DNA of 64,000 nt, from positions 472 through 64,471 of the forward strand of contig CAJOLU010000002.1 in NCBI GenBank assembly GCA_905235475.1, in the 5' to 3' direction. Both the position numbers and the translations under genes were made by a program. A model generated the notes under the pieces. The model was not told the origin of the DNA. It saw only the letters and a list, made by a program, of their open reading frames with translations, and searched no databases. The stretch's first letter is position 1, and the number at the start of each line of letters is the position of its first letter. Origin of the DNA: an uncultured Clostridia bacterium. Its GTDB lineage: Bacteria > Bacillota > Clostridia > Christensenellales > UBA1242. Shown here piece after piece: positions 1 through 46,086 of this stretch.

Positions 1-1917
1 CTTCTTGGATGCATGATTGTTGGTGGAATTATTGGTTCATACATAGATGTGCAAACAATCGACCTTAGCTACATGTTCACAGGAACATATTCATTACTTA
101 TTGGTGGCGTTCTTTTCTTGTTGTTTTTTGTTTGGCTATTACTTCGTGCAACCAACCAAGAAAAAGGCCCCCTATTTAAAAGCACTGGAAAAAAGAAAAA
201 AGTTGAAACAAAACAATTCTTTGATTCAGTTTGGCTAACAGAAAAAGAAATGGACAAAAAATATAGCGGAACAACCTTTAAACACCTTGGCGAAATGAAA
301 TCTGGAATGCCATTAAAAGCAGAACTTCGTGGTGGAGATGTTCACATTAACTTTAAATATGAAGACTGGCACGCACTAATTATTGGTACAACTGGTGTTG
401 GTAAAACTCAATGTTTAATTAACCCAATGCTTCAAATTTTGGGAAAATGTAAGGATAAGCCAGGTCTTGTTGTTAACGATATGAAAGGTGAACTTTTTAA
501 CTACAACAGTGAATATTTAAAGAAAATGGGCTATAATGTTATTTCTCTAGACTTGCGTGATGCCTATAAATCCACAAGATGGAACCCAATGGAAAAACCA
601 TTTGTGGCATATCAAAGAAGTTTGCACCTATATAGTGAAGTTAAGGTTCACCATGGTGGAAAACCTGAAGATTACAAACTTAAAAAGATTGACAATGTTT
701 ACAACAATGAATGGTATGAATTTGATGGAAGAGCATACCCAACAAAAGAAATGTTGGATAACGACTTAACCGCTCTAAAAAAGCAACTTCAAGACTCTGC
801 CTACGAGGATTTAAACGACATTGCATTCACCCTTTGCCCACAAACTTCAACTGGTGATGGAGCCACTTGGGAAAGAGGAGCTAAAGACTTTGTTTTGGGT
901 GTTATGCTTGCAATGCTTGAAGACAGTGCAATACCTGAACTGGGTATGACAAAAGAGAAGTTTAATTTATTTAATGTATACAAAATTTGTAACCTACGTG
1001 ATGATGACCCAGACAACCAATTTGCAAGTCTTCAAAAGTATTTCCAAGGCCGACACTCACTTTCAAACGCAGCGCAACTTGCAAACCCAATCATCAACAA
1101 CGCCCAAACAACCATTCGTGGGTATATGGGTATTGTTTCAAGTAACTTAAGTTCTTTTGCAGATGAGGGAATTTGTTTTGCAACAAGCGGAAACGAAATG
1201 GACTTTGAACACTTCACAGACAAGCCAACTGCCCTATTTGTTAAGGTTCCAGATGAAAAAGACACCCGTCATGCAATTGCAACAATGTGTATTGTGCAAC
1301 TTTATAAAATACTTATTGAAACAGCCAACAAAACAGAAAAACTTCAACTTCCAAGAAAAGTGTTCTTCGTGCTTGATGAGTTTGGTAACCTTCCAAAAAT
1401 TCCAAAGTTTGATTCAATTATAACCGTTGGTCGTTCTCGTCGAATTTCAGTGTTTATGGCAGTTCAAAGTTATAACCAACTTAATGTTAAATATGGTGAT
1501 GCAGTTGCAGACACAATTAAATCAAACTGTAACATTCACTACTATCTAGGAACAACAGACGCAAAAACAAAAGAAGACTTCTCTCTTCGCTGTGGTTCAA
1601 CATCTGTTGACACAACATCAACAACCAAAAACAAAGGAAAAGATGGCAAGCAAGACAGCACCTCTGTTTCAACAAACAAAACAAGTGTTAGACTTATCAC
1701 TGTTGATGAATTGGGCCTTTTGAAAAATGGAGAAATTATTATTTCAATGTTTAAAGAAAGTGCCATTAGAACAACCTTCACCCCATCTTGGAAAGCTGCA
1801 CAAGCCGGAGTTTATGATTTAACTCCACCTCCAGAAACATACATTCCAGCAAGATATTTGGATACAGAAAAAGTTTACTACGATATAAGAATTCGAAATA
1901 GAAAAGTTTTTAGATAG
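1..1917 (+). CDS. virD4: VirD4/TraG-family type IV coupling protein (5' end probably outside window)
   Basis: Frame is open from base 1 (LLGCMIVGG...). N-terminal TM segments, Walker A GTTGVGKT, NDMKGEL, WNP, Walker B LDEFGNL, and GRSRRI..QSYNQL..YG..A..I..NC typical of T4SS-DNA_transf/TraG-D_C. Confidence 0.88.
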   Translation, partial: LLGCMIVGGIIGSYIDVQTIDLSYMFTGTYSLLIGGVLFLLFFVWLLLRATNQEKGPLFKSTGKKKKVETKQFFDSVWLTEKEMDKKYSGTTFKHLGEMKSGMPLKAELRGGDVHINFKYEDWHALIIGTTGVGKTQCLINPMLQILGKCKDKPGLVVNDMKGELFNYNSEYLKKMGYNVISLDLRDAYKSTRWNPMEKPFVAYQRSLHLYSEVKVHHGGKPEDYKLKKIDNVYNNEWYEFDGRAYPTKEMLDNDLTALKKQLQDSAYEDLNDIAFTLCPQTSTGDGATWERGAKDFVLGVMLAMLEDSAIPELGMTKEKFNLFNVYKICNLRDDDPDNQFASLQKYFQGRHSLSNAAQLANPIINNAQTTIRGYMGIVSSNLSSFADEGICFATSGNEMDFEHFTDKPTALFVKVPDEKDTRHAIATMCIVQLYKILIETANKTEKLQLPRKVFFVLDEFGNLPKIPKFDSIITVGRSRRISVFMAVQSYNQLNVKYGDAVADTIKSNCNIHYYLGTTDAKTKEDFSLRCGSTSVDTTSTTKNKGKDGKQDSTSVSTNKTSVRLITVDELGLLKNGEIIISMFKESAIRTTFTPSWKAAQAGVYDLTPPPETYIPARYLDTEKVYYDIRIRNRKVFR

Positions 1918-1924
1918 TTATTTC

Positions 1925-1956
1925 AAAATCATAGCAAAAAATGGCTATGATTTTTT
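1925..1956 (+). terminator. Intrinsic terminator after virD4
   Basis: AAAATCATAGC-loop-GCTATGATTTT followed by T run. Confidence 0.75.
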
Positions 1957-2163
1957 GTTTTTGCAACCATAAAAACATAACACAACTCTTTTATGTTTTT
2001 GAACACAAAAATTGGAGAAATTTTTATATTTTTTAAATCAAGTTTTCAATGTTAATTTTTTGTTATATTTTTACAAAATATAAAATTTTGGTAAAATTTG
2101 CATATATCTTTGAAAAAAAATCAAAATATTTTTAAGGTTTTTCAAAGTTTTTTGTCTTTTTAG

Positions 2164-2193
2164 TTGTGAAAAAAAGCATAATATGCTAAAATT
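2164..2193 (+). promoter_or_regulatory. Putative extended -10 sigma-A promoter of the 3009 aa gene
   Basis: TTGTGA-18bp-TAAAAT with TGn extension; palindrome AGCAT-aat-ATGCT (2176-2188) overlaps it. Confidence 0.45.
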
Positions 2194-2257
2194 TTAACAA
2201 TAAAGACAAATGTAACTTTGCAATTTGGTCGGGAAAACAAAAGTCAAAGGAGAAATT

Positions 2258-5200
2258 ATGCAAAAAAAGAGCGTTAGAGTTTCAATTTTAAGCAGTATAG
2301 CACTAATTTTGATGGCTATGCTATGTGTTTTTGGTTTTGGAAAATTTCAAAGCGTGAAAGCAGCAAACAATATGGGGGCAATGACCGCAGTGGTTATCAC
2401 GGTTGATAATGAAACGAACGGTTATATTTCAGAACGACCACTTGAGAACTTGGATGAAGAAGACATTCCAATAATGCTCAATAGCTACACCGAACTTGTT
2501 GGGGCTGAAATTAGAGATGGCTATCTATTTTTGAAAGGGGCAAGCGACGGAATAGCACCCACAGTAGAAAGTGGCATAAATAAATATTACACAAAGGTTA
2601 CAAACGCTCAAGGAGTTGAGGTTGATGCAGTTGTTATGTATAGTGGCTATCTCAAAAAATGTATTTGGTTCAAAACTCAATATCTCAGCATCCCAATCAC
2701 AAACATCAGAACTAATGAATTTACCTACACATATAACGGCATTGCACGAACAATAACAACAGAAGAGAACATCACAGATGGTTCAACATATAACATAACT
2801 TTAGGCTTTTTGGGAGAACAATCTGGAACATTATCAATTGCAGAGGATGAAATTTCTGGAACATGGACTTCAACAAACTTTTTTGAAACTCACGAAGCTC
2901 TTTTAATTAGAATTGGTTCTAGCACAAGCTCAATTCGTTACGACATTGATGCTCAAACATTGACTTTAAATGGTGAAAGTATTGATGGTTATGGAAAAAT
3001 TGAGGAAGCTGTGGGTTCTTACTACTACAAAGAATATCACGGTATTCCTGCTGAAATTGTAGACGAATGTGGCATTAATGTTGCAGCAAAAACAAGAAGA
3101 GTTCGTGGAAACACCGACCCATCAAACTATTTAAACACTTTGGAAGGGTATTACAAACTCAACATAACATACAGAACACAAGTTGGTGCACCACAAATTT
3201 CAAACTTCAATTTCTACTTAATCACATCAAACACCTACGCAAACACAGATGAAATTTTAACTTTCTATAACACAAACTCTCAAACAGCAGCCGAAGATGA
3301 TGAAGAATACACAAAGTTACACTACTTTAATCACAACAACTTAGACAACAATCAACTTTTGGATATTGCAACGCCAATTGAATTAGACCAAAGTCTTATT
3401 GCAATAGATAGTTCTGGACTGACCTACAATGGAACAACCTACCCTAATGACTTACCAAACATCAATATTTATAATGCCATGAACGAAAATACTTTTGATG
3501 GGAAAAGAGGAATTATCTACAACAATAATCTCACACAAAAATGGATGTTTGCTGATAGGCTGTTATATCCAACACTAACGTTCAACCCAGAAAAATATGA
3601 TTTACAATATCAAAAAGTTTGGTATAACACAGAGGAAAACGGCGAATTTGATTTTGAAACACTTGATGCCTTATATGGAGTTATGAGCGTTTACACTGTT
3701 AGCACTTCTGGCACAAGAACATTAAAAACAAGTTTTGATGTTGCAAGAAAAACTGATGAGTTGGAAGGCGTTGACTACTCCACTCTCAACGTGAACAATA
3801 GTGATGTTTTAGTTAGAGTTACTGTTAATGGAACACCTTACCAAGCAACAAATGGACTTATCACAATTGATGGCACTAACTATTATTACAACAAAGTTGA
3901 AAAGAAAGTTTGCAAATATGATTTAGATGCTCCATTTATTGCAAAATACACCATGGAAGAACTGGGCGAATATGTGTTCTTGCAACAATATAAACTCAAA
4001 ATTAGCAACAATGAATATTATGTAACAAAAAACATTAACGATAGTTCAAACATTTCAGACAAAAATGAAAAACTTGTTATTAACGGCTATCAAGCAACCT
4101 ATCGAAACAACGGCACAACCACAAGTTATTTGCGTAATGAAAATTTTGTTAGTGATTTTTCTTACTTGCTAACAGAACCAGTTTATACAAGTTTAGATAG
4201 TGAATCAAAAGCAGTTGTTCAACCAAATGAAAACATTTCGTATGCGGAAAATAATAATGACTACATCATCACAATTGAAGGAATAAATTATTATATTGAT
4301 GCAACTAAAATAACCACAACAAATCAAGCACCAGTTTCTTTAAGATATTTTGCAACACCAAACAATAAAACAGCAAATGGCAAAAGTCTTTTGTGGTATG
4401 TTCACATAGATAACAATAAGAACATAACAAGAGGCGACTACTCTAACTCAAAATCATTTTCCACCGCTGGGCTTTATGTTGTCTTCCTATCGTTTGTTGA
4501 CTCTTCAGATTCAAGCAAATGTTGCGAACAAATGATTGCCTTCAAAATAACAAACTCTCAACCTGAAGTTTCAATTCAAACAACAGACTATGATAACATA
4601 ACCATTCTAGACCACAAAGGAAGTGCTGAAACCGCAATTACCTCTAACAGTTACACAAACAAAAATGTTTACATTCAATGGCTAAACAACGATGTGTTTA
4701 ATGCAAATATTTATGCAACCTACACACAATATGATTTTAGTGGAAATATTGTTAGAAGAAATGCACCTTTAACAGGGCTTATCTACTACAAAGATGAAAG
4801 CGTTCTCAATAATAATACCACCCTATTCACTGAAAACGGGCGATATGTTGTTAATATTTATTACACGAACTCAGGTTCATCAATTAACAGAAGTTTTATT
4901 ATAGACAAAACAAGCATTTCTGGAATTAAGGCAGTTCAAGTTAATGTTACAGATAGAAGAATTTTTGGATACGACTCCAGTGACTCAACTCTTACTAATG
5001 CAACTCTATCAGACCAAACAAACTTTAATCTTGTTGTAAAAGATGCTTTTGCTTGGACTTGGAACAGTAAATCAAGTGGCGCCAAGATTTCTGCTAGATA
5101 TTACTATTCAAACATTGCAGGAAAATCTTCTTTTGCATTAGACAATATTGAAAAAGATGGAGAAAATTGGGTTCTTGCAAATGGAGAATTTGGAGAAATT

Positions 5201-8200
5201 TTAACTGGAACAAACTATGCTCACACCGAACTTTCCACAACTATTAGCACAACATCAGAAGCAATATATTGGAAAGATGCTATGTTTGATAGTTCTCAAA
5301 TCATTTCAACCAACTGTATGGCAATTCTAGTTTTGAAAGATGAAGCAGGCAACACTGCAAGTTTTGTGACAATTTATGAATCAATAACACCACAAACAAT
5401 TCAAAAGAAAGTTGATAGTTCAGAAAGAACAACAAGCACACTAATCTCCGCAACCACTGAATTTATTTTTGGTTCACACAAGGCACTAAGTGTTGCAAAG
5501 GGTTCTGCTAGAGCAGAAACAATTAACACAGTATTTGCTGGCATTTTAGATGGAACATCCACAACATTTAGCATCAATTCTTCAGAAGAATATGCACTTC
5601 CATCAAACATTTGTTCATCTCTTCAAAACACATTTAAAAGTTATTCAAATGAATTGTATTACACTCTTCCAATAAAAAGAGCAGAATCAAGACTTATTTG
5701 TGATGAAACATATGAAGTCACAATTGCTCCAACAAAAATAGGTTCAAACTACACAAGAACATCTTTGTTTGTTGTTCTGCAACAAAGTGGTAACTCAATG
5801 TTCACATATATATCAACTTCAGCAACTGGTTCACCACTTTCAGCAAGACTTTCACTAGATGTGTATGGTCAAATTCAGTTCACTTTAACAACTGTCGACA
5901 ATCTAGAAAATAAAATCACACTCAACAAAAACATTTCTTTAGACCAATCAGATGGAAGAATTTTTAGTCATTCTGGCAAAAACCCTGACACAAGTGCAAT
6001 AACAGACACAACAACATTTGATAACAAAAGAAATGCAAATAGGCAACAAGTTTTTGTGGGATATTCAACAAATAGAGATTTATTAACATTTAGTTTCTTG
6101 CAACAACCTTCTGGAAACTTTAGAGTTGAATCTATAAAACTTGAGTATTACGAACTAAATCTTAACTTAAAAAACATATCTGAAAATGATGTAGATCCAC
6201 TGTATCCATATAACACAACTCCAATCAAATACACACTCTATAGCATTAACTCAAGTGACCCAACTGTTGGCCTCAATTGGAATGCAACTGAAGGAGATGG
6301 TGGTGAAATTGGAAGTGGAACTTATTTGCAATCTGATGCAATCAATCTAACTTCAAACGGAGTCACAGCACCTGGAAAATATGTGTTCATAAGAAAATAT
6401 GAAACAGACATTTCAAGTCTATCACCAGAAGAAAACAAAAATGATAAAACCACTTTTGAATATACTGTGTATGTTGATAGAAATGGAGTTATTTCTAATG
6501 ATATGACAATTAATATTGGTGTTAAAGGCGTTTTCTCAAACTATGAAGAAAGTGAAACATACAAAGAATTCAATTCTTTTGGAAGTCAAAAAAATGCACA
6601 ACCCGAATTTAGAAACAACTTTATATATAATGGAAACACTGCCAGCAGAATTAATTTTAACCAAACAAAAACCAATCTTTCAACTGATATGCTCCCTGCA
6701 AAAATTGCATTAGAAATTATTAATGGCATTGCATACAAATATTATTACAATTATGATAACAAGCAATATTACAGCACACAAAAAAATTCACAACTAATAG
6801 TGATTGTTCAAAAATTTGGTGATAGCAACATAATAAGTTCTCAAACGCTCTACTCCTCTGCAATAACACAAAGCCATAACACAAATGTTCTTGCAAAAAG
6901 TGAGCCAATTCAAAACCTTAATGCACAAAGTTTTTCTGATGCTGGAATTTATAGAGTGTTTGTGATGGATTTAGCAAACATTAACATACCTCTAACAGAT
7001 TCATACTTCACAACAGATTGGGCAAGTGGGGTTTTGGGAATATGGGACTCCACCATTTATAATAGCAACTTCACGCCAAATGTTGGAACATTTAGTTTTA
7101 AACTTAGAAAAGAAGATATCGCAACATCTGTTCTAATCAAAAACGCAGGTGTTGACACCTACACAAACGTAGGACTTGGTTCAATTAATGGACAAAATTA
7201 TTACTACACTCAAAACAACAATGTCATCTTCTCATTTAGCGACACAATCGATGAATATAAAGCAAAAGTTCAATATAAAAACTGGACTCTTACTAGAACT
7301 GTTCACACACTTGTGAATGGAACAATGCAAGAAAGAGTTGAATCACCAGTTTCTCCAAACAATGTTGAAATTAGAACCTATGACCCAAACAATGAAGAGG
7401 CAAATATTCTTGTGTTTAGTGAAAATGAACTAAATCGCATAAAGGGAGTTGCAACAACAACACCTTCAACAATGACATTTAGCACAAAGGATAATGAAGG
7501 TGGAATATTGTATTATAGAACAAAATTTGCTGGCCTTAATGATGACAGATACACCTACTATATTCTCCTTCCATCTAATGTTGTGGGTGAAACCAAAACA
7601 GACTGTAGTTATAGCCTAACATTAAGTTATTTGGGAAACCCAAACAGTTATATGAGTGCAGACAATCAAACAAATTACTTCTCAAAAACAACACAAGCCT
7701 ATATAGACAACACTGCACCATATAAACACCTTTTAAGTCTCATTAATCAAGACACATATCTCACAAGTGCACAAAAGAGTGATATGATTGCAAATCTTAA
7801 TAACCCTAATTACGAATTTTTAACATATTATGCATTTGCAGTTGGTCCAACATTTAGTCTTGAAGCAATTGATGATAGTGAGAACATAGATTGTTTCTAC
7901 TACAAAAAGGTTTCTGGACAAAAATATGATGGTTCACAAAATCCTAAACAAACCGTTATTCCAGAAAGCGAAAACTTCGATAAATATGCAGACTATCGTT
8001 TTAACGAAACATTCTACAAAAAATATTATCTCTCTTCAACCTCAGCAGAAAGTGGCTACAACAATTCCATAACATCAAGTGCTGAAGGAAGTGGTTACTA
8101 CGACATTATTGAAGTTGATAAAGCTGGAAACCACAGAGTTTACACAATTTACCTAAACGGTGATGGTGTTAGCATAAATACAACAGCAACTGACGAAAAT

Positions 8201-11200
8201 AATTCAATTTATGAATATAACTTTATCAGTTCTTTTGCCGGCACTACCCCAACATATGAAATAACATCAAATGGAGTAACAATATACTCAAAAACAGGAA
8301 TAATAAATTATGATGTTTTAAGTGATATTCCATCTATTTCAAATTCAAGTTTTGTTATTGAGGGATTAAGCATTCAAGATGAATGGTATACCATTAATTA
8401 TAGATTGATGAATGGAGTAGATAATGCGCCTTGGCAAACACTTGTGGCTGCACCTCAAATTTATTCAAACATTACGGGAATAACCTATAACACAAAAGCT
8501 CAAAACATTGCAATCTTAAATGATTTTATTTCACAAAACATTGAAAATGGAAAACTATCAAGTGGAACAAGAATGGAATTTATGATTGTTAACCGCGGTG
8601 GAAATAACTTAAGATTCTATTTGTTAACCCCTGGAGTGGGACTTGTTATAAACAACATTTCTCCAACTCTTGTTGGAAACAGATATTTCACTGTAACAAT
8701 TCCTGCCGACACATATTCAACAAAATTTAGCGACTTTAGAGTAACGCAAAATAGTGTTTTGTTGTCAACAGACCACAATTCTCCTCCAACATATATTTCA
8801 AACATAAAATCAACAAGAGAAACACCTGTTATGTTAAGATTCCTTTTGGGGAACTACCGCTACTCTATTTCATTTAAAGATAATTTTGGAAGAAGTTATG
8901 AATTTATCTATCCAACAACAGAAGGAATTGTTAATGAACTTGTGTTTGAAGATGGAACCACACCAAAATATGTTGATGGAGTGCTCTACACCTCTAACAC
9001 ATCAACGTTTAACTACACAACTGGAACAAGAGATAGAATTAGCATAAAAATTGTTGATAAAGACACAAATATTGTTATTGCAGACCTAAACAACTTGCCT
9101 TATAGTTCAGCGATTGAAACAGATGTAACTTTGAAAACCGAACTTCAAAAAGAAGAAATTATGCCATATATGACTGAAAAGTTAAATATGAATAACTCTG
9201 TTGTTTCAATCACATTTAATGCAATTAAAAACAGACATCTTGTTTATGAAATCACGCTTTTAGATATTGATAACAACCTTCACACAAGAGTTTTTGCAAT
9301 ATACACAAAAGCACAAACAATCACTTTAACAGATACAGTTGGAATCGAGATATTTAACGATGACTTAAGCGATAAAATCACTTCCAAAACAGTTGTCGTT
9401 AGATATTCCACCCCACAAAATGTTTTGTTTAACCCACAAGTGAAATTATTTGATGGAACAAACACAACAAATCTATCTTCAAGTGCACAAATTAGAAACG
9501 CTGGAGAATATAGAATATTTATTGCAAACGACCTTGGAATAATGAATGTCTTCACAATTGAATTCACAATCAAACCAGCCACAACAGATATATACAGTGT
9601 TTACTTTGCTGATGAACTGTTGTCAGCTCACTCGGTGAAATATAATTTTGAAATTGATTCCACAACAAAACTTATAGATAGTTACTTCTTCTTGTCTAGC
9701 TCTAATAACGCTTGGAATGATATTCAAATTCTCCCAAGTGAAGATAAAGACCTCACAACAGAACTTATCACAACTTCTGGAAACACAAAAATATATAAGA
9801 TTTTTGGCAATGTTTATGAAGATTATTTTGCAGTAACGCAAATATTCCCTGTTGCAAACAACCACTTAACAAATTTTGAAGTTTACATAACAACAGACCT
9901 TACAAATTATATTAGTTCATCTGTTGGAAGTGGTGATCACCAATACTTAATTGAACCAACAACAGGCAAAGCAACATATGCAAAACTTCATTGGGACACA
10001 TCAGAAGCAGGATTTAAAAACTTTGTGTTTGCAAACATTTGGTATAACAATGTTTATATGGGTAAATACACAGATGATGTTGTTCTAACAAAATCTGGTG
10101 AATACACAATTCAAATTATGGATATTGTTGGTCAACAACATAGGTTTGGAACACAAAATCGAGATGCTTTCACCTTAACAATTTTAAATAATGTTAACTA
10201 CAAAATTAACAATGCAAATCCAATTGAAAATCAAACATTTAACGATCAAGTAACTTTAACACTTATGAATGAAGATAGATATTCTTGGAACAGTGGTGGA
10301 TTCATAAAAGTTTTGAGGAACAACCAAGAAGAAACAAACTACATCACTCAAGGAAGAAGCTGGACATTCACTTTGGCTGGATATTATAGTGTTTATATTG
10401 AAACCCCAATTTCATCCAACACAACAACTCCAATAAAGATTTCAGCAACAGCACACTTCACAATTTTGGACAAAAATGAAAGCAAAACTGTTTACGACTT
10501 TGCAAAAATATCTGGCTACTCCGTTACAAAAGTGGAAAAAATAGAATATAACAGCGACTTGGCGGAACTTATTAATTTAATTGTTACCAACGCAACAACA
10601 ATTGATGCCGATTCCTCATATAGTGCGCAAGTTTTAAATTCATTTAAGCAATATAATGAAAATGTTATAACACAAAACAACATAACAACAGTAACACAGC
10701 TTGCTGAATATCTAAACTCAATTGATAGCAACAGCCTTCTATATACCTATATTGATGTAACACCAACAATAAAATCAATTTATGAAACAGAAGTTATTCA
10801 AAGCTTTAAAATAACTCCAGACAATTTGGGGGTTGGAAGATATAGAATTTATGTGAAAGTTGAAGGTAGTGAACTAACAGCTGCTCAATCCTATTCTTAC
10901 GACATTTGGATTAATAATGAAGAACCTACCTTAACATCTTCAAGAGCATTTGGCAGTTCTTCAACATCAAGTTTTATTATATCATTTAACCCAAGCATCA
11001 TTTATAGTCAAATTGGTAACTCTTACATTAAGATTAATAACACCATTATTGAAACAATTAATGACTCTAATCAGGCAAATGTGGTCAGAAGTTATCGAGT
11101 TTCAGCACCTGGAACATATTTAGTTCAAGTTTATTCAAATAGTGGAAGTTTGATTTCCAGTCAAAGAATAACAATAGATGTTCCACTCAACACTGCTGCA

Positions 11201-11287: not shown

Positions 11288-11290
11288 CAC

Positions 11291-11326
11291 AAAAAAACAC
11301 ATTTCAAAACTGAAATGTGTTTTTTT
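11291..11326. terminator. Bidirectional intrinsic terminator
   Basis: AAAAAAACACATTTCA-aaac-TGAAATGTGTTTTTTT between convergent genes. Confidence 0.85.
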
Positions 11327-11338
11327 ATTATCGTAATA

Positions 11339-11749
11339 TTAACGCTTACTAAATTGAACAGCACGACGTGCTTTGTGAAGACCATATTTCTTTCTTTCTT
11401 TCATTCTTGGGTCACGAGTGAGAAGTCCTGCAGTTTTTAGAACAGCCTTATTCTCTTCATTAATTTTAACAAGTGCTCTTGCAATTCCGTGACGGATTGC
11501 GCCAGCTTGACCAGTTGTTCCACCACCATTAACATTAACAAAAACATCATATTTATTTAATGAATCGGTTAATTCAAGTGGTTGACGAACGATTTGTTTT
11601 AGTGTTTCCAATCCAAAGTATTCATCTAAACTTCTTTTATTGATTGTAATCTTACCTGTTCCCTCAACAAGACGAACACGTGCAACAGAACTTTTTCTTC
11701 TTCCTGTTGCTGGAGTTTGAACAACATTTGAACTCTTCTTTGCTGCCAT
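11339..11749 (-). CDS. rpsI: 30S ribosomal protein S9
   Basis: [26 protein letters not shown]-terminal QFSKR. Confidence 0.99.
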
Positions 11750-12192: not shown

Positions 12193-12274
12193 TTTTTTCT
12201 CCTAAAATAAAAATTTTCCGCCTAATTTCTATCTTATGAGGGCTAATTCACAAAATTTTTCATAGACTTTTCGT

Positions 12275-12303
12275 ATTATACATCTTTTTAATAATGTTGT
12301 CAA
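12275..12303 (-). promoter_or_regulatory. Sigma-A promoter of rplM-rpsI
   Basis: Minus strand TTGACA-17bp-TATAAT, perfect consensus. Confidence 0.85.
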
Positions 12304-12379
12304 TAGATTTAAAAAAGTTTACTTAAAAGATTATACTTAAAAATTTTTAAAATTTTCATAAAATTTCTGCAATTTTTTG

Positions 12380-12408: not shown

Positions 12409-12500
12409 ATTAAGGCTAAAAAACGACACGATAGAATAGATTTAACATTAAATAATTTATTCCAATAAAAAATGTGTGATTATACATATTTTTTGTTTGA

Positions 12501-14485: not shown

Positions 14486-14488
14486 TGG

Positions 14489-15001: not shown

Positions 15002-15661
15002 TTATGGTAATTTGTTTATCTTTGTGGTAATTTTGGGGCCAACCCAGTTGCTTTTCTTTCTTTCAACAAAGTTGGCTTTTCCAATATCTAATGCACCCAA
15101 CACCTTATTATATTTCTTTGACCATTTTTTTATGATTTCAATAACTTCTTGTGCATTTGTAACACCCCAAACCTTGTCTTCCTTAAAGTCATATCTGTGA
15201 TTGTTATCTAGTGGAACACCTGCAACTGTTGCGCTCCACCCTTCAACATTTGTATATGCAATAACCAGCCTACAATGTTTCCAGGCAAAACTAATTTCAT
15301 TTAAAGTTCCACTTCCACCCCCAATTGCAACAACAACTGAGCAGTTTGCAACCATGCAATCACGATATTCATTTAGTCCTGTTGGAATAACAATATCTGC
15401 AAAATCATTTGAGTCGTTTTCATCATAACTTGGTGAAATTGCAATGGTATCGCCCTCACGATATTTTTTGCTTGCATGAGCACCTGCCATCACGGCACGC
15501 ATAACACCTCTGCCTCCACCGGTCAAAACACGATAACCATTATCCACCAAAGTCTTTCCAAGATCATAGGCAAGGTCCCATTTTTTTCTATCATTAGAAT
15601 TGCTGCTTCCATACCAACACGCAGCATTGCCAACAACCCCAACAATTAATCTTCTTTCCAT
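15002..15661 (-). CDS. LOG/SLOG-family nucleotide-binding protein (TIGR00725-like)
   Basis: VLTGGGRGVMRAV, IPTGL..YRD, AIGGGSGTLNEI. Confidence 0.85.
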   Translation of the reverse strand: MERRLIVGVVGNAACWYGSSNSNDRKKWDLAYDLGKTLVDNGYRVLTGGGRGVMRAVMAGAHASKKYREGDTIAISPSYDENDSNDFADIVIPTGLNEYRDCMVANCSVVVAIGGGSGTLNEISFAWKHCRLVIAYTNVEGWSATVAGVPLDNNHRYDFKEDKVWGVTNAQEVIEIIKKWSKKYNKVLGALDIGKANFVERKKSNWVGPKITTKINKLP

Positions 15662-39028: not shown

Positions 39029-39057
39029 AGTTTTCACCTTTTCTTTTTAAACTTAAA

Positions 39058-42000
39058 TTACAAAACTGTGTAAGTTTTTAATATTGGATAATTTGTTCCA
39101 TCAAAGTAGAATAAATTCAATTCTTTAATCATGCTATCATATAACAAGTTTGTGTTCAACGTGCCAAGAGGATCAGTAGCATTTGGATAGTAAACACTTG
39201 TTGGCATATATTGAAGCGTATTATTTACATCATTAATTGTTCCAAAACTTACAAAAGCCCCTTCACCAATGCCAGCCTTGAGGTCTACCTCAGAAACTCC
39301 AAAGCTCCTCTCACTACCATTAAGTCCACCAACATAGTTTGTGCCATCACTCAAGTAGTAACAATAATCGGCTATAACTGAATTTGCCGCAGAAAGACCA
39401 TAGAAAGTTGAGTCATTAGTTGATACATAATTATCATTATAATCAACTCTGTTTGCCACGTTTATGCAGTTCATTAATATTATGTCACCAGACCTTGAGC
39501 CAACAATTCCAGAAATCACCGCTTGAACTTTTGTTGTGCCACCATTATTAGCATATCGAATTCCATTCACAACTTCCAAACCTCCTGCCTGCAAGCAGTT
39601 AACAACAAATGTTCTTGCACCACCAAATCCCAAAATTCCGCCTGATTGTGATTTTGTTCCTTCAACAGTTCCCACTTGTTGTGTGGCATATGAGGTTAAT
39701 TTTCCTTCATTTGTTGAACCACTAATCACATTTACCCATCCGTTTTCATTATCCAAACTTGGGGCAAATGTTGAATAAACAATTCCACCAATTTGTGATG
39801 CACCTAGGTTACCTGTGTTCTTACAGTTAATCACACTTGCACCATAAATAGCACCAGCAATTCCTCCCATACGAATAGTTGAGTTTAACAAGTTTGAGCC
39901 ACGCGTTAGAGTGATGTTCACATCGGTCACACAATTAATAATTTTTGCTTTCCTATCAACATCTTCCCCATCTTCCAAAGGCAAATATGAGTTTGATGAA
40001 TCAAGTCTTGCAACAATTCCACCATATAAGATTTCCGATGCAGCATTTGTCACACTAAAATTAATTCCATGGTTTTCATTATTCTTTAATTCATCAGACA
40101 TCTCAAGTTTACAGTTCACAAACCATGCCCCATAACCATAAGTCGCAAAGAACCCAATGTCTGAGAATAGTTGACCATAATCAAATTCAGCAATTTCAAG
40201 TGTTACATCATTAATAATACCACGTCTTCCAAAGAAGTTATTGTTTGCTGAGCCAGCACCCTCAACTGGTTTTCCATAAACAGCGTAGAATAAACCAGCA
40301 TTAATAGCACCCTCATACACTTGATAATTATGAATGGTATGTCCATTTCCATATAGCCCACCTGCAAAGAAAGTGAATTCATTGTCATCAAACATAAAGT
40401 TAGAGCAAAGACGGGTTGAGTCTATTCCTCCAGACGCAACATAGAGGTCGTCTCCATCATATAATGTAACATCTTCATCTAAACTGAAGTAAAGTGTTTG
40501 CAATTTTTTAATGTTATAGAATTGTTCGGTTGCAGAAATGCTTTTACTAAAGAAACCATCTTGAGTTGGAGTTATTGATTGAATAACAAATGGATTCTCC
40601 ATTGTTCCTTGTCCACCAGCAAACTTATCAAACTTAAGCTCTTCGGAACTTACAATTTCACTTGGAATAACGTTGGCACTTGTTGATGAAACTTGAATGT
40701 CAACCAAAAATGTTCCAACATTCCAAAATGGCACACTTGCATTTACTGTTCCGTCCATATTATAGGTTAACATAAGTTCATCTTCTGTGAATATTTTAGG
40801 TTCACTTGCAGTGATTGAGCTCATACTCAACGCATTATCTTCTGGGCTTCTAAACTTATATGATACAATAAATTTATCATTTGAAGCACCTTGTGATTGT
40901 TGAGTGTAGTTCCACTCAAGTTTTAACCCATCATCTGAAATACCAACCTGATTTATTTTTGAGAATCTATATGCGCTCATATATTTCTCTTCACTATTCA
41001 AATAGTATGAACCATCATTAGCTCTTTGAGTGAAGTAAGAAATTCTAACAGAGAAGTTTGAATTTTCAAATGAACTTTTACTAAAATTCAACGTTCCAAC
41101 AAAAGTGTCGTTTGTTAAATTATAATTAGGCTCTTCTTCGCCATCTCCAGTTATTTTTCTAAATTCCACACCATCAATCATTACAAAAAGTTCTTCATCG
41201 GCGTTTTGTTGTTTCCATTCAAATAATCCATCTTCATTTATTTTAACTTGAGAAACATCTGCCAACTTTTTAACGTTTATGCATTCATTAGAATATTGTG
41301 AGTTAACATAGTTGCCATATTGAGAAACAGTGCTGAGTGCCACACCTTTATGCCTTACTTTAATGCTTGAAATATTTGTCATTGCAACAATTGCTTCAAT
41401 TTGAGCCAAGTTGTCAGCACTGTAAGCAGACAAATCACCAAAAGTATTTAGTGTTAACAGAGTTTGATTTGTTGTGATTTGCGCTGAAGTTACATCATCA
41501 ATTAAAATCTCATAGTCATTGTAGTTAAATGAATCTTGATTTTCTCTCCATTTCAAAATTCCATCTTCAATTTCTAGTATTGGCTTTCCAGCAATAGTTA
41601 CTGAAAATGCAGAAGTGTAGTCACTGTTAATCCAAGCCCCATCTTTATTTGAGTTTGGAGTTCCAACACAACAAACTTTAATGTCTAGAGTTTGCCTTTC
41701 TGTAATTCTTGAACTTAAATCAAAATAAGCTTCATTCAAACTTGATTGTGCTTCTTGGTCACCATATAAAACATTATAATAACTAAACGTTGGCAATCCA
41801 AGTTGTGTTGTTTCACTCGCACTAATTTTGTCCCAAGTGATTTCTCCATCAACAATTCTAACTCCTGTTGGAATTGCCCATTTATTCACATTATGAACAG
41901 CTGTTGGCTGTGAATTGATATATGCCCATTCTGTTTCATTTGAAAGCATATTGGTTCCCATAGATTGCAATGTGAATCTAATTTCACCCGTCTTTCCTTG

Positions 42001-45000
42001 CAATGGTGCAAGTGGCATTTGATATTTAACTACGCCATTTTGTTCTTGGCAGTCCACAATGTCAGTTTGAATAAATTTATTACTTTCATTACCTCTTTCA
42101 TAAACAACCGCGGTGTAAGAAGTTGCATTATTTATTGCATTCCATTTAATAATTCCATTTTCAACATAGAATGTTGGAGCACTTAATTGCGTAACTGGAT
42201 TTTCAAAACCCGTGTAAACACTTGAATCAATATAATTTTCACCATTTCCCAAAACTTTCATTTGAACTGTAAACACTCCAGCACGACTATTTAGGCTCAT
42301 ATCATAAGATGTTTGTGATGCATCTAACTGAATTATTTCTGGGCTAGATAGAAGATTGTTTTCATAGAATATAAGTTCATAACCGAACTTTGTGTTATTT
42401 GAATCAACCCACCTAATAAGCCCATCAGAAACACTTAAAACTGGTTCAGCAAGTTTAACAGCAAAATAATCTTTAGACTCAGGAGAACTTAATGTAAGAG
42501 CACCATTTGATTGTGCTAAATTAGAAGCGTTAGAAGCGTCAATAATAGCCCTAACAGTTAATCTGTTTGAACCCGCATTAAGAATACTTAAATCAAAATA
42601 ATCATCAACAACATCATTTTGAATACTTGAACCATTTGAAGAAATTGAATATAACCCAACTCCAGCACTATCTATCCAAGAAAGCCTATATTCACCATCT
42701 TGTTCCGAAACATCCAAATTTGTTGGTTTTGCAAGTCTATTGATCACAAAGTTATTTGTTCTAACATTGCTCTTAACATAACCAGCTTTCACTGCTTGAA
42801 TGCTTATCTCACATCTTTCCAAAGTGTGGGAATTTCCAAATTCAAATTCTGGATTTATGTCAATCCCCAAATCTTCAACCAATGTTGAAGAAATTAGTTT
42901 TGTTCCACCCGTTGAAAGAGTTTGATAAACTCTAACTATGTAATCAACCTTATTTTCATCACCTGGATAAATTCTGCTCCAAGTGATTTTGTTATATGGA
43001 TATTCATTCTTAACTTCAAGAGTTGAATAATCAACTTCTTTTAGTTTCACAAATGAAAACTCGTTTGAATAAGCACTTGAAATAACCTCTGGTCTATCGC
43101 TTAAGGCTTGTATTCTAACCTTATATCTTCCATAATCCAAAGCACTTGTGTTCCAAGTTGTTCCATTAATAATAATAGGTTCTCCCCAGTTATCCAATTC
43201 ATTGATTTTGAACTGAAGTTGATATCTGCTAGCATAAGTTATGTTTGAATTAACTGTTGCACTAACACTATTCCAACACACTTCATATTGTTCTTCATCA
43301 ACAAACAATGTTGGTGCCGACATTCTGTATAATTCCAATGATGTTCTTGAGTAGTTTGAATTAACATAATATTCATCATCTCCGTATGCCATAGCTGCAA
43401 CAGTTAACTTCCCTTCTCTTGCGTCCTGTGCCATCAAATCAGCATAACCCACTTGCCAATATCCATTCAATTCACTATCTGTTGTTCTATATGAAGTGGA
43501 ACCAGATGAGTTTGTTAAAGCAATTCCATAAACGCTACTACCTTGAACCATAGAGCCACGAATAAAATCGCCATAAACTTCTGGAACACTTGGTGTGGCC
43601 AATTTCGCAAAAGTTAATGAAGAGCCATACCCTGAACTCAAAAGGTAAATTCTTTGCCCATCAATCTCAATAACATTACCATCTTCTCCGCCCAAAATTT
43701 CCGCTCTCATTGCAACACTATTTCTGCCCTCATAGCAATCACTTGGTGCCAAACTATAGGTCGTGTTATATTGCTCAATTCCATTAATTATTGTTGTTTG
43801 ATTAACATAAATTGGGATATTTCCACCAATTTGCAAAACATATCTAAACTTATTTTTAATTTGTTCATTAATTTCGCTAATACCAGTGTTTAGCGTATCC
43901 CACGCAAATCCACCATTGGAAATTCTAATACCAGTTGGAGCATTTAGACGATAAAAGCCAATCTTTTCAGACTCTTCAGAGTTGAGATATCTCACATCAG
44001 ATTTATTGTTAATAACTTTAACACTAAACACATATTCTCCAAAACCAGAATTTGTTAAATATGATGTTAGGCTTTCTCCATTTTTATTTGAAGAAACTTT
44101 TATTTGAATATCTCCACTTGTGTTATTTCCGTTTGCTTTATTGTGCACAGTAATAACAATATCACACTCGCTAGAAATAAAGGTTGAACTATTATTCCAA
44201 CTTAAATATCCATCTCCATTGATTTTAAGGCTTGTTGGGGCCTCTTGTTTTATGAATGGAAGCATATTATTTATGTCTTCAGTTGTGTATTCTTTAGCAG
44301 ACCTCACAAACAAATCGTCCCCAATCGCTCTAACACAAACCTTATAATCTCCTGCCGGATAAGAAACAACTTCAGTGTTTGCAAGTGAATATGAAGTTTG
44401 TGCTGCACCCAAAGCAATTACATCATGTTTCTGTTTTGTTTCAAGTTCACCATTTTGTGAATTTAATTCCTGAACACTGTAAATAAGTTCCAAAGAATAA
44501 CCTGTTGCACCCGCAACTTGATTCCAAACAAGTTCACCACCGCCAGTGCGCACAATAGGGTTTTGAAGTTTTGTGAAATTCAAATTTGCTTTATCACTTT
44601 CAATATAATGCATTGCATTACCTTCTTGAAGGTTTTGCTTTGGTTTTGCCACAACGGAAATTATATTATCTCCCTCAACAAAACCAATTCCATCATCAAA
44701 AGAGAATGTTGTTTGGTTTATGGTTGTTTTCACTTCATCATTCAAAAGAATTTGATATTCACCAGCAAAAAGAACATCATCCCAAGTTAAAATTGTTTGA
44801 GAACCACCACCAAGTGTTGCTGTTAAGTTTTCCACTTTTGCAAGTTTGACGGTGTCAACCAAAGAAAATGCCCCATCAAGTTTTTCTAAGCCATTTCCTT
44901 TTGCCCTAACTTTTATATTATTTGTTTCTAAATCCAAGTCATCAGAATTTAACTCACATCTATTTACATTCACAACAATAGGGTCACCATCGTTAACAAC

Positions 45001-46086
45001 AACTTCATATTGGCTTGCGTTTGGAACAGCATCCCAAACCACAACATTTTCCATTAACGCAACACCAGTTGGAGCACTTAATTGATAAAAAATCTTGCTC
45101 CCACTTTGAACTGGGTCAAAAAATCTTTGTCCATCACCTTTCAAGTTAACAGAAATTTCAAACTCACCCGTTCCAAAGTCTTCGCCAATATTGTCGTGAG
45201 GGATTGTCCAGCAAACATAATTGTTCCCATCAATTATTCTTTGAGACTTTTCAAAAGAACTCAAAGTGTCTGCATCAAGTTCTTCGTTTTGGGTTTTGTT
45301 AAAGATTGAAATGTCATAACTTTCTGGTGTTGCCACATAGTCTTGAGAATAAATTGGAACCAAAATCTCATAATTCTTCACTTCAATTCCACTTGGTTTA
45401 TCTAGTATTGTGAAAACATACCTTTGGGAATAAGCCGAATCTCTAAAAGTTTCTTCATCATCACTTAAAGATTTCACCCAAACAGAATAAGTTCCAGATT
45501 GGTTAAAAGAATTTTCGCCGAAAACATAAGATAGATTCCTTCCAACATCAAATTCTTCCGCCAAATCAATATCTTCAACATCACCAGAAGCAATTGCTAG
45601 CGTGTAGCAAGGATTATAATTGGCAATCTTAATATCACCATCGCTTTCATCAACAAACAAAACCTCATCCCAAACAATAGATTTTTTGTTGTTGTCATAC
45701 CTTAAATTAGATGGAGTATCCAAAGTTATTTTATCTGCCAAAATTTTAACTCTAAAAACTGTTCTAAGTCTAGAGTCATAGTCTGGAGTAACCAAAATTT
45801 GCGCTTCGTGAGCCTTCCCATCAACCACCAAAGCGCTAACCAAACCATTTTCATCAACGGTCACATACTCCCCACCTGAAATAACAGAATAGGTAACCGA
45901 TTTATTGGTTGCCTCTTCTGGAGTGAAGTTGACCTCAAGTTGAACTTGCTCTCCTTGTAAAACAGAATAGAATGCTTTATTGGAAGAAATTCCATTAAGC
46001 GGAACTCCTTGTGAGCACGCCACCAAAATTGGAGCGAACAACAAACAAAGAATTAATCCAAAAACTGTGTGTTTAACTTTTCCCAT
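39058..46086 (-). CDS. Giant (2342 aa) lipoprotein: Big_2 Ig domain, ~17 FN3-like repeats, C-terminal GLUG-like domain
   Basis: Lipobox LVAC. GEQVQL.V.FTPEEATNKSVTYS..VTVDENGLV is Big_2-like. Repeats such as LSAPT..VENGIIKWNAINNATSY. C-terminal FAGGQGTMENPFVI, GNGHTI, GGIVA/GGIAG/GGIVY/GGILG. Confidence 0.85.
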   Translation of the reverse strand: MGKVKHTVFGLILCLLFAPILVACSQGVPLNGISSNKAFYSVLQGEQVQLEVNFTPEEATNKSVTYSVISGGEYVTVDENGLVSALVVDGKAHEAQILVTPDYDSRLRTVFRVKILADKITLDTPSNLRYDNNKKSIVWDEVLFVDESDGDIKIANYNPCYTLAIASGDVEDIDLAEEFDVGRNLSYVFGENSFNQSGTYSVWVKSLSDDEETFRDSAYSQRYVFTILDKPSGIEVKNYEILVPIYSQDYVATPESYDISIFNKTQNEELDADTLSSFEKSQRIIDGNNYVCWTIPHDNIGEDFGTGEFEISVNLKGDGQRFFDPVQSGSKIFYQLSAPTGVALMENVVVWDAVPNASQYEVVVNDGDPIVVNVNRCELNSDDLDLETNNIKVRAKGNGLEKLDGAFSLVDTVKLAKVENLTATLGGGSQTILTWDDVLFAGEYQILLNDEVKTTINQTTFSFDDGIGFVEGDNIISVVAKPKQNLQEGNAMHYIESDKANLNFTKLQNPIVRTGGGELVWNQVAGATGYSLELIYSVQELNSQNGELETKQKHDVIALGAAQTSYSLANTEVVSYPAGDYKVCVRAIGDDLFVRSAKEYTTEDINNMLPFIKQEAPTSLKINGDGYLSWNNSSTFISSECDIVITVHNKANGNNTSGDIQIKVSSNKNGESLTSYLTNSGFGEYVFSVKVINNKSDVRYLNSEESEKIGFYRLNAPTGIRISNGGFAWDTLNTGISEINEQIKNKFRYVLQIGGNIPIYVNQTTIINGIEQYNTTYSLAPSDCYEGRNSVAMRAEILGGEDGNVIEIDGQRIYLLSSGYGSSLTFAKLATPSVPEVYGDFIRGSMVQGSSVYGIALTNSSGSTSYRTTDSELNGYWQVGYADLMAQDAREGKLTVAAMAYGDDEYYVNSNYSRTSLELYRMSAPTLFVDEEQYEVCWNSVSATVNSNITYASRYQLQFKINELDNWGEPIIINGTTWNTSALDYGRYKVRIQALSDRPEVISSAYSNEFSFVKLKEVDYSTLEVKNEYPYNKITWSRIYPGDENKVDYIVRVYQTLSTGGTKLISSTLVEDLGIDINPEFEFGNSHTLERCEISIQAVKAGYVKSNVRTNNFVINRLAKPTNLDVSEQDGEYRLSWIDSAGVGLYSISSNGSSIQNDVVDDYFDLSILNAGSNRLTVRAIIDASNASNLAQSNGALTLSSPESKDYFAVKLAEPVLSVSDGLIRWVDSNNTKFGYELIFYENNLLSSPEIIQLDASQTSYDMSLNSRAGVFTVQMKVLGNGENYIDSSVYTGFENPVTQLSAPTFYVENGIIKWNAINNATSYTAVVYERGNESNKFIQTDIVDCQEQNGVVKYQMPLAPLQGKTGEIRFTLQSMGTNMLSNETEWAYINSQPTAVHNVNKWAIPTGVRIVDGEITWDKISASETTQLGLPTFSYYNVLYGDQEAQSSLNEAYFDLSSRITERQTLDIKVCCVGTPNSNKDGAWINSDYTSAFSVTIAGKPILEIEDGILKWRENQDSFNYNDYEILIDDVTSAQITTNQTLLTLNTFGDLSAYSADNLAQIEAIVAMTNISSIKVRHKGVALSTVSQYGNYVNSQYSNECINVKKLADVSQVKINEDGLFEWKQQNADEELFVMIDGVEFRKITGDGEEEPNYNLTNDTFVGTLNFSKSSFENSNFSVRISYFTQRANDGSYYLNSEEKYMSAYRFSKINQVGISDDGLKLEWNYTQQSQGASNDKFIVSYKFRSPEDNALSMSSITASEPKIFTEDELMLTYNMDGTVNASVPFWNVGTFLVDIQVSSTSANVIPSEIVSSEELKFDKFAGGQGTMENPFVIQSITPTQDGFFSKSISATEQFYNIKKLQTLYFSLDEDVTLYDGDDLYVASGGIDSTRLCSNFMFDDNEFTFFAGGLYGNGHTIHNYQVYEGAINAGLFYAVYGKPVEGAGSANNNFFGRRGIINDVTLEIAEFDYGQLFSDIGFFATYGYGAWFVNCKLEMSDELKNNENHGINFSVTNAASEILYGGIVARLDSSNSYLPLEDGEDVDRKAKIINCVTDVNITLTRGSNLLNSTIRMGGIAGAIYGASVINCKNTGNLGASQIGGIVYSTFAPSLDNENGWVNVISGSTNEGKLTSYATQQVGTVEGTKSQSGGILGFGGARTFVVNCLQAGGLEVVNGIRYANNGGTTKVQAVISGIVGSRSGDIILMNCINVANRVDYNDNYVSTNDSTFYGLSAANSVIADYCYYLSDGTNYVGGLNGSERSFGVSEVDLKAGIGEGAFVSFGTINDVNNTLQYMPTSVYYPNATDPLGTLNTNLLYDSMIKELNLFYFDGTNYPILKTYTVL

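Follow-up and report, generated by a model that had tools for sequence, protein, structure and literature searches.

Among conjugation systems of bacteria without an outer membrane (monoderms), a reduced type IV secretion system (T4SS) is that of integrative conjugative elements (ICEs) from Mycoplasma, in which CDS15, CDS16 and CDS17 (VirB4) together with CDS5 (VirD4) constitute a minimal machine, according to the available part of a review (PMC12857230). The consecutive genes Mbov_0395, Mbov_0396 and Mbov_0397 of the Mycoplasma bovis ICE correspond to CDS15-CDS17. As far as the accessible text of the sources goes, a surface lipoprotein, CDS14, promotes donor-recipient contact in Mycoplasma (PMC6030558), the minimal machinery of these Mycoplasma ICEs (MICE) also mobilises chromosomal DNA in the process called Mycoplasma chromosomal transfer, and adhesins of the PrgB type act as surface proteins of conjugation (PMC12857230). 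In the same part of that review, dated December 2025, the relaxase-less chromosomal T4SS of the Patescibacteria is called unique among monoderms (PMC12857230). Here we describe a locus that invites comparison with both, found in a stretch of 64,000 nucleotides (hereafter the window; bases 472-64471 of contig CAJOLU010000002.1, here C2) from an uncultured Clostridia bacterium of the Christensenellales. Its assembly (GCA_905235475.1, here G000; other G codes denote the genomes of relatives and C codes contigs) comprises 839,660 bp in 10 contigs, is 88% complete with 0.7% contamination and has about 33% G+C. The window opens with a VirD4-type coupling ATPase followed by a gene for a protein of some 3,000 residues (giant A), and these two read as one arm of a T4SS locus of the Mycoplasma-ICE type, that is, of the minimal monoderm MPF-FATA kind (MPF, mating-pair formation). 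The anatomy and the evolutionary reading taken together, a domesticated T4SS without a relaxase that works with giant A and from which two further giant proteins of the window (giants B and C) stand apart, we regard as evenly balanced between right and wrong. The features of this arm are as follows.

1..1917 of the window (open reading frame, ORF, listed as 13..1917), plus strand: VirD4-type coupling ATPase (type IV coupling protein, T4CP), from Pfam, NCBIfam, start codon and motifs.

1925..1954, plus strand: terminator-like hairpin directly after the VirD4 stop (consensus scan: 11-bp stem, then a T-run; pattern match only).

2070..2097, plus strand: promoter-like site before giant A (consensus scan: 10 of 12 positions, TG ahead of the -10 element; pattern match only).

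2258..11287 (alternative start 2225), plus strand: giant A, candidate T4SS-linked adhesin of 3009 amino acids (aa) or, from the alternative start, 3020 aa.

11289..11328, minus strand: long terminator-like hairpin between the convergent giant A and rpsI genes (consensus scan: 18-bp stem).

The first of these genes matches the Pfam families T4SS-DNA_transf (3e-41), TraG-D_C and TrwB_AAD_bind, and it scores 260 bits against the NCBIfam model conju_CD1115 (cut-off 250). The true start codon, an ATG (C2:430) served by a GGAGG ribosome-binding site, lies 42 nt ahead of the window and gives a protein of 652 aa whose hydrophobic N-terminus becomes visible once this start is used. The Walker A motif (GTTGVGKT at residue 125) is intact in 27 of 29 VirD4 proteins of the family, K131 and D455/E456 are conserved in at least 96% of them, and the ratio of nonsynonymous to synonymous substitution (dN/dS) against the nearest relative, G006, is 0.12. 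With domain scores above the cut-offs, ATPase motifs and an N-terminal membrane anchor, the protein is by its sequence a coupling protein of the VirD4/TraG class, the closest plasmid matches being only about 30% identical.

The apparent lack of genes upstream of VirD4 is a limit of the assembly and not biology, because contig C2 breaks 471 nt before the window inside a multi-copy 45-bp repeat. When the VirD4 neighbourhood was compared in 20 relatives, those with enough flank carried four genes divergently upstream of VirD4: a pilin-like gene (119-138 aa, matching Pfam T4SS_pilin), a lipoprotein-like gene (630-945 aa, with one hydrophobic segment only, at the N-terminus; a lipobox was read only in the G000 copy), a gene for a polytopic protein (770-980 aa) and a gene for a VirB4-like ATPase of about 860-890 aa (P-loop_TraG, DUF87, AAA_10), which scores 577-586 bits on the Mbov_0397 model, just below its cut-off of 590. 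This divergent arrangement lies upstream of VirD4 in the five same-genus relatives with sufficient flank (G011, G004, G010, G003, G006). The first three genes are found in G000 itself on the 5.8-kb contig C10. The 119-aa pilin-like protein, with two transmembrane (TM) segments, matches ICE_MMCAP2_0565 of the Mbov_0395 family (56.3 bits, cut-off 40) as well as Pfam T4SS_pilin; a lipoprotein of 667 aa accompanies it; and the 882-aa VirB6-like channel protein, with about seven TM segments, matches the MMCAP2_0566 family (126 bits, cut-off 90) and ICE_Mbov_0396_TM (81.8 bits, cut-off 70). The 3' end of C10 and the 5' end of C2 share the 45-bp repeat, and C10 probably adjoins the window on its left side. 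Among the locus proteins scanned, neither VirB1 nor VirB8 turned up. The system looks complete as a minimal monoderm machine, VirB4 being seen only in the relatives. The preliminary description of this DNA, in which VirD4 appeared to stand alone, has therefore to be revised, since a minimal T4SS of the Mycoplasma-ICE type adjoins it in relatives and lies on C10 in G000; a search for VirB4, VirB6 and pilins, as proposed there, recovered a pilin and a VirB6-like protein on C10 but no VirB4 in G000.

As for the repeat itself, tandem copies of the 45-bp unit, with related short GC-rich palindromic elements, occupy C2:1-135 just before the window; the repeat lies at five contig ends (C1, C2, C3, C5, C10) and at a few internal sites, with 15 exact 24-nt cores assembly-wide. 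This repeat seems chiefly responsible for the breaks in the assembly, that beside VirD4 among them.

The distribution of the system was followed in the family (coded f1), of which at least 74 genera with genomes of 0.7-1.6 Mb were sampled across the searches. VirB4 (PF19044) was found in 58 of 60 family genomes, the pilin in 59 of 60 and VirD4 in 23 of 24, and the locus is usually single-copy. Across the order, a full-length VirB4 of the Mbov_0397 type occurs in 9 of 9 family genomes versus only 13 of 191 others. The MobL relaxase was found in only 13 of 60 family genomes (11 above the cut-off), with several copies in some and stop codons in two copies, and it was not found in G000; four other relaxase families (PF03432, PF01076, PF02486, PF03389) were found in none of five near-complete genomes, TrwC-type and novel relaxases lying outside this search. 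In some family genomes (e.g., G065 C2, G041 C7) a second VirB4 and pilin lie near MobL genes, G065 having six MobL matches. The T4SS locus is flanked in G011 by MnmA, a zinc-ribbon protein and GAPDH, and in G021 by Dus, SpoVT and a MiaB-like enzyme. No integrase was seen in the window or in the flanks of relatives examined, a statement that covers neither recombinase families genome-wide nor DDE transposases of the MICE type, which were not searched for.

Quick maximum-likelihood trees of VirD4 and RpoB have 10 of 14 splits in common over 17 shared genomes, whereas 2000 label shuffles reached a maximum of 3, and the four conflicting splits are weakly supported nodes. VirD4 identities to G000, paired with those of RpoB, run from 89/79% down to 53/41% with a rank correlation of 0.96 (n=17, rows not independent). 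The preliminary description had named, as what would speak against it, a VirD4 lying in a patchily distributed ICE with relaxase and integrase; what was found is a nearly universal gene with housekeeping flanks, a tree congruent with that of RpoB and no relaxase, so that, on the gene families searched, the locus does not qualify as an ICE. Its suggestion of vertical inheritance consequently holds for VirD4 and the first giant, which are often syntenic and congruent with RpoB; giants B and C, by contrast, are recognisable only within the genus.

Two of those 13 genomes outside the family, G031 and G034, carry, in this order, a MobL relaxase, a VirD4 37-42% identical to that of the window, a large membrane-anchored protein and a CDS16-family protein, followed in G031 only by VirB4; this is an ICE-like module. 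The simplest history would be that the family's ancestor fixed a module of this kind, from which the relaxase was then lost.

Giant A begins with a signal-like N-terminal segment and ends, by translation and hydropathy scan, in a PLNT tail motif, a TM helix and a basic tail (RTRMKVK-COOH). It has no Pfam or NCBIfam match, its family profile (alignment A1) gave nothing below E 0.6 against the PDB, a tblastn search with its C-terminal part gave no match to plasmids, and a word-indexed protein search with residues 1900-3020 returned 23 proteins including that of the window, all of 2688-3090 aa and without Pfam domain or name. Alignment A1 comprises 22 family sequences, which are colinear from near residue 600 onwards, and each of them closes with the same tail: (E)PLNT, a TM helix and a terminal R-x-x-M-K-V-K/R. 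Conservation is lowest in the first 600 residues, as would be expected of a distal binding end. The protein evolves fast (44% identity to G011 in A1, where RpoB has 89%), with a dN/dS of about 0.35-0.39 (dS near saturation) that indicates overall purifying selection. The PLNT tail was considered as a sortase-type sorting signal and rejected, since no sortase (PF04203) was found in G000 and no other G000 ORF has such a tail; the region is read as nothing more than a stop-transfer anchor whose basic end is conserved.

Structure prediction with AlphaFold2 gave, for the last 480 aa of giant A, an essentially all-beta chain of sandwiches with, in addition, a genus-specific helical hairpin and the terminal TM helix (pLDDT, the per-residue confidence, 89; pTM, the predicted template-modelling score, 0.79), and for the first 1100 aa an essentially all-beta chain of beta-sandwich domains (pLDDT 78.5, pTM 0.64). 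Foldseek placed these models beside immunoglobulin-like (Ig) and FN3 arrays, the grappling-hook protein GhpA, S-layer proteins and SiiE, with low whole-model template-modelling (TM) scores, as is expected of flexible multi-domain chains, and no enzyme fold was among the matches. When VirD4 was modelled together with the C-terminal 181 aa of giant A, the complex scored 0.00, which gives no verdict either way.

The link between giant A and the T4SS comes from descent and position. A profile comparison (hhalign) connects giant A with the 1431-aa protein that follows VirD4 in the MobL module of G031 (99.1%, E 8e-19, 660 columns) and with its 1962-aa counterpart in G034 (97.9%, E 6e-13, 745 columns); both are colinear with the last 1000 residues of giant A, both have a signal peptide and a C-terminal TM helix with a basic tail, and their genes overlap the VirD4 stop. 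Within the genus, a giant A homologue of 2,300-3,300 codons lies directly downstream of VirD4 in all seven other loci examined; in an unselected sample of other genera it does so in 3 of 11, with a probable fourth in G014, where homology was not shown by BLAST. Fourteen further giant A loci were examined, six of them picked since the pilin and giant coordinates looked close, and in all six (G052, G041, G057, G063, G062, G049) the giant lies at most two genes from VirD4 or the pilin; additionally, in G015 the homologue adjoins a VirB6-like fragment. The adjacency to VirD4 is frequent, not fixed, and giant A appears to belong to the T4SS both by descent and by position.

These observations can be joined in the following explanation. 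Window positions 1-11287, with VirD4 and giant A, would be one arm of a chromosomal, single-copy T4SS of the Mycoplasma-ICE kind for which no relaxase was found; the divergent arm would hold the pilin-like protein of the Mbov_0395/CDS15 family, the 667-aa lipoprotein and the 882-aa VirB6-like channel of the Mbov_0396/CDS16 family, joined in relatives by the Mbov_0397-type VirB4. The locus would descend from a MobL-relaxase ICE module like those in sister families, and the module would since have been fixed and passed on vertically as an organelle of the cell in a family of gut and rumen Clostridia with genomes of about 1 Mb. On the surface the system would display giant A, a rod anchored in the membrane and built of some 25-30 beta-sandwich domains, with a fast-evolving N-terminal end that binds a partner cell and holds it at the channel, a role suggested by analogy with the CDS14 lipoprotein of the Mycoplasma ICEs and with PrgB. 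Regarding the cargo, we lean to DNA, since the parts that can be recognised, down to the tightly linked T4CP, are all of conjugative type; a contact-dependent export of DNA between cells without a relaxase, as in Mycoplasma chromosomal transfer, is a tentative proposal that we place somewhat below an even chance. A transfer of proteins or nutrient-related material to or from a host bacterium, of the kind proposed for Patescibacteria, is nearly as likely. One further idea, that the T4SS substitutes for missing competence genes, was rejected, ComEC being present in five of five genomes.

Several observations weigh against this explanation. The join of C10 to C2 rests on a repeat that also ends contigs C1, C3 and C5, and VirB4 was not found in G000 itself; we attribute its absence to the assembly because the latter is repeat-broken and incomplete, although in an 88%-complete assembly a loss is possible. 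The additional MobL-linked copies in the family imply that mobile cousins circulate, which could blur the vertical signal. Giant A homologues were detected by tblastn in only 19 of 40 genomes of other genera; the adjacency to VirD4 is lacking in 7 of 17 other genera with a VirD4 locus examined; and in G021, G024, G048, G050 and G043 no T4SS gene was seen in the flanks of the giant A homologue examined. Co-transcription of VirD4 and giant A is doubtful because the terminator-like hairpin and the promoter-like site lie between them, and giant A may have its own transcript, separate from that of VirD4. Finally, a DNA cargo is pure inference, no relaxase, oriT (origin of transfer) or recombination tract speaking in its support, and the ComEC found in all five genomes implies that ordinary DNA uptake exists in the lineage.

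The other giants bear on this explanation as well. Besides giant A, the window holds two more, both on the opposite strand.

22511..39037, minus strand: giant B, 5508 aa (5505-5508), with a single N-terminal TM anchor at about residues 31-55.

39058..46086, minus strand: giant C, a lipoprotein of 2342 aa with the lipobox LVAC at residues 21-24 and one N-terminal Big_2 domain.

The ORF list bears out the preliminary description in that VirD4 is accompanied by giants of about 3009, 5505 and 2342 aa, which sum to about 32.6 kb or 51% of the window, and translations with the hydropathy scan agree with it that each giant has a different anchor (C-terminal TM in A, N-terminal TM in B, lipobox in C) and that no LPxT[GAN] motif, and hence no LPxTG, is present in any of them. 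Its label of repeat proteins did not survive: BLASTP of the giants against themselves and each other gave no internal repeat and no mutual similarity at E<=1e-3, and repetition is shown by structure only, for giant A only, in its tandem beta-sandwich domains. The Big_2 domain of giant C is the only Pfam or NCBIfam match in any of the three, giant B having none, and the ESM Atlas returned no usable match for the last 859 aa of giant B.

Among 40 family genomes, giant B has a match only in G011, an ORF of 8691 aa with 26-39% identity; a search with both of its halves gave no match in 39 genera outside the genus. This orthologue (G011:C3:353562-379600) has 8691 aa against 5508 aa here, a shift in length by thousands of codons within the genus. 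For giant C, 10 of 12 further genomes of the genus hold an orthologue (30-59% identity), and outside the genus only weak partial matches occur, in 5 of 39 genera. Outside the genus both may have diverged beyond recognition rather than be absent. They are adjacent in G000 and in G011, and they look like a separate, adjacent pair of very fast-evolving surface proteins, probably serving attachment or the envelope, which nothing connects with the T4SS. In total, G000 has nine ORFs of at least 2000 aa (7683, 6022, 5508, 5255, 3020, 2513, 2359, 2342 and 2032 aa), which occupy 110 kb or 13% of the assembly; ORFs of at least 1000 aa occupy 20%. The other six giants (2032-7683 aa) lie on contigs C1, C3, C4, C6, C7 and C8, two being lipoproteins and several TM-anchored; they form the paralogous groups C3/C7/C8 and C1/C4, several stand at contig ends and may be truncated, and none is related to A, B or C.

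The explanation that competes best holds that the T4SS and the giants form an attachment or feeding apparatus for an episymbiotic or parasitic life, moving proteins or taking host material, as proposed for Saccharibacteria. It would suit genomes of about 1 Mb, a T4SS that is nearly universal in the family without a relaxase having been found, and the nine giant surface ORFs. Like the Patescibacteria T4SS, which two reports describe in their available parts as essential for epibiotic growth (PMC10633639; PMC12102498), the system has a pilin, and the nearest structural matches of giant A include GhpA of the contact-dependent predator Aureispira. However, sporulation genes (YqfD here, SpoVT in a relative) and ComEC are kept, and a VirD4 of a conjugative family is conserved, whereas the essential Southlakia system has no recognisable coupling protein in the described part of the work (PMC10633639). 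Moreover, giants B and C are not conserved outside the genus, and the likeness to GhpA is generic Ig-array similarity, with TM scores of 0.10-0.15. Such an apparatus seems rather unlikely, if well worth keeping in view. The streamlined genome from which the preliminary description argued is real (0.84 Mb at 88% completeness, with relatives at 0.7-1.6 Mb), and the episymbiotic or predatory lifestyle it suggested as possible is one of two comparably likely readings.

Could the locus instead be an active ICE whose relaxase and recombinase are of unrecognised types? Every part of it that can be recognised is a conjugation gene, MobL modules house the nearest relatives that VirD4, giant A and VirB4 have beyond the family, and additional MobL-linked copies exist in some family genomes; but an element that is nearly universal and usually single-copy in one family, while the same subtype occurs in 13 of 191 other genomes of the order, whose VirD4 tree is congruent with that of RpoB, whose housekeeping flanks hold no recombinase and for which five relaxase families were not found, would make a very improbable ICE. 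The relaxase searches that the preliminary description had proposed thus came back negative, for MobL in G000 and for the four Pfam families in five near-complete relatives.

An equally slim chance attaches to the view that all three giants and the T4SS act as one cell-contact system, which is how the preliminary description had joined them. They do lie within 46 kb, in an arrangement kept in the same-genus G011, but core genes (rpsI-rplM, CysRS, AspRS) stand in between, the giants show no sequence similarity to one another, six other giants lie on other contigs, and no orthologue of B or C can be recognised in those other genera in which the T4SS and giant A persist. Of that proposal the link between VirD4 and giant A remains; the 46 kb are not one apparatus, because B and C are limited to the genus, dissimilar to A and to each other, and show no tie to the T4SS.

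That the T4SS genes are a decaying ICE remnant beside which giant A is an adhesin by chance could be argued from the VirB4 missing in the G000 assembly, the adjacency lost in several genera and the terminator-like site between VirD4 and giant A, but is scarcely credible given reading frames intact in nearly all genomes examined (one VirD4 has a single in-frame TGA), dN/dS values of 0.12 for VirD4 and about 0.35-0.39 for giant A, ATPase motifs that are kept, T4SS genes that persist in at least 58 genera whose genomes shed most other genes, and the homology of giant A to the protein in the same position of the ICE modules.

The surroundings of these loci are those of an ordinary chromosome. Around the giants lie rpsI, rplM, a transporter of the major facilitator superfamily with CBS domains (MFS-CBS), an SLOG protein, the cysteinyl- and aspartyl-tRNA synthetases (CysRS, AspRS), an ABC-F protein, two tRNA-Arg genes and a leucyl-tRNA synthetase (LeuRS); further along the window are ABC exporters, YqfD, YbeY, Era, RecO, DnaG and SigA. 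A Pfam scan of the 24 other window ORFs of at least 100 aa revealed no integrase, relaxase, transposase or phage protein, in line with what had been noticed at first, and the G+C and GC3 (G+C at third codon positions) of the giants resemble those of neighbouring genes.

Some further observations were made in the window and the assembly. At about 46100-50000 the gene orientation flips (minus strand to the left, plus strand to the right) and the cumulative GC skew has its minimum, adjoining two divergent tRNA-Arg genes in an AT-rich gap; this region is not a dnaA-linked origin, because dnaA sits on contig C4, and the minimum may just follow the coding strand of the giant genes. At 52197-54608 lies an 803-aa LeuRS-like synthetase which outside the genus has counterparts at 46-54% identity in no more than five genomes (G020, G023, G024, G025, G038), all other relatives giving matches of about 30% to proteins of about 880 aa; this type of LeuRS seems to have been exchanged within the order. 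It was dropped as a species marker, since outside the genus the 803-aa type occurs only in those five genomes, and RpoB was used instead. An SLOG cluster-4 (LOG-like) protein of 219 aa is encoded at 15002-15661, between the MFS-CBS transporter and CysRS, and a 557-aa ORF at 20778-22451, with one central hydrophobic segment and no family assignment, gave a sub-threshold match to DUF2963 (21 bits against a cut-off of 22.6), a family otherwise seen in Mollicutes. Regarding the envelope, only two genes with a Mur-ligase domain were found in G000 (C9:8967-9524 and C1:15008-15529), where a walled bacterium is expected to have four or five; sporulation genes such as YqfD are nonetheless present. The envelope may be unusual, or the genes may be unassembled.

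What would be new here needs to be set against what is published, namely the relaxase-less chromosomal T4SS of Patescibacteria and the minimal machine of the Mycoplasma ICEs. A chromosomal T4SS without a relaxase has so far been described as a hallmark of the Patescibacteria, and the same evolutionary move is now seen in Clostridia: the transfer machine of an ICE fixed as core equipment in drastically reduced genomes, with the coupling ATPase and a dedicated giant surface protein retained. No description of a fixed T4SS in Clostridia or of a giant partner was found in the literature, of which the supplements (Tables S2, S3 of PMC10633639, PMC12102498) could hold Bacillota outgroups; the only paper found with both 'Christensenellales' and 'T4SS' (PMC10266427) is, in its accessible part, unrelated. 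Were DNA its cargo, these tiny genomes would possess an inbuilt apparatus for sex; a cargo of proteins or nutrients would point to a hidden dependence between cells among common uncultured gut bacteria. A bolder proposal, which we think distinctly improbable, is that a whole family of gut and rumen Clostridia with genomes of about 1 Mb has made a machine of the Mycoplasma-ICE type, together with an adhesin of 3,000 residues, into an organelle that it cannot do without, used to live on other cells or to exchange macromolecules with them, in a convergent, contact-dependent lifestyle within the Bacillota like that of the Patescibacteria or candidate phyla radiation (CPR), the nine giants serving partner recognition. 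Whichever cargo applies, 13% of a small genome is spent on proteins that family databases do not recognise, and VirD4, giant A and the C10 proteins supply concrete genes for enrichment, imaging and population-genomic tests.

Compared with known systems, the giants are first of all unlike the sequence-repetitive adhesins with Big, FN3 or cadherin arrays, since A, B and C have no self-repeats at E<=1e-3 and there is a single Big_2 domain, in C only. With the giant Ig-like fibres (GhpA of Aureispira, SiiE of Salmonella, the S-layer proteins SbsC and Sap), which are among the best Foldseek matches, giant A shares tandem arrays of beta-sandwiches; the likeness is at the level of the fold only (whole-model TM 0.08-0.21, 6-12% identity), no sequence relation was found, and secretion routes and anchors differ. 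PrgB of pCF10 is likewise a surface protein encoded with a monoderm T4SS and has the same proposed role in mating-pair formation. Unlike PrgB, giant A has no LPxTG, polymer-adhesin or other Pfam domain, and no sortase (PF04203) was found in G000; its anchor is a TM helix at the C-terminus, and it exceeds PrgB two to three times in length.

The T4SS of the Patescibacteria/CPR, exemplified by SEML1_0006-0019 of Southlakia epibionticum, is also chromosomal and widespread in a lineage with reduced genomes, and it is described in the accessible portion of the survey as descended from the MPF-FATA type of monoderms, with the relaxase missing from most clusters and with pilin-like proteins, for which PF18895 was used (PMC12102498). 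The two differ in that VirD4 is conserved inside the locus of the window, whereas the Southlakia system is given no recognisable coupling protein in the consulted section of its description (PMC10633639), and only 148 of 5,713 T4CP homologues lie near virB4 in the survey as far as its text is available (PMC12102498). The traits of the Patescibacteria clade, a locus near dnaA and a T4CP that is usually unlinked, are not those seen here, where dnaA of G000 is on contig C4, VirD4 is in the locus and the phylum is Bacillota. The Mycoplasma ICEs (ICEA of M. agalactiae, ICEB of M. bovis) differ from the system of the window in three respects: its host belongs to a Clostridia lineage and is not a Mollicute; its locus is chromosome-fixed, near-universal in the family and congruent with RpoB, and not a mobile element; and its surface partner is TM-anchored, of 2,300-3,300 aa and without detectable similarity to named families. 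They nevertheless share with it the same minimal gene set, VirB4 being seen in the relatives of G000 only, and a channel that is accompanied by a surface protein.

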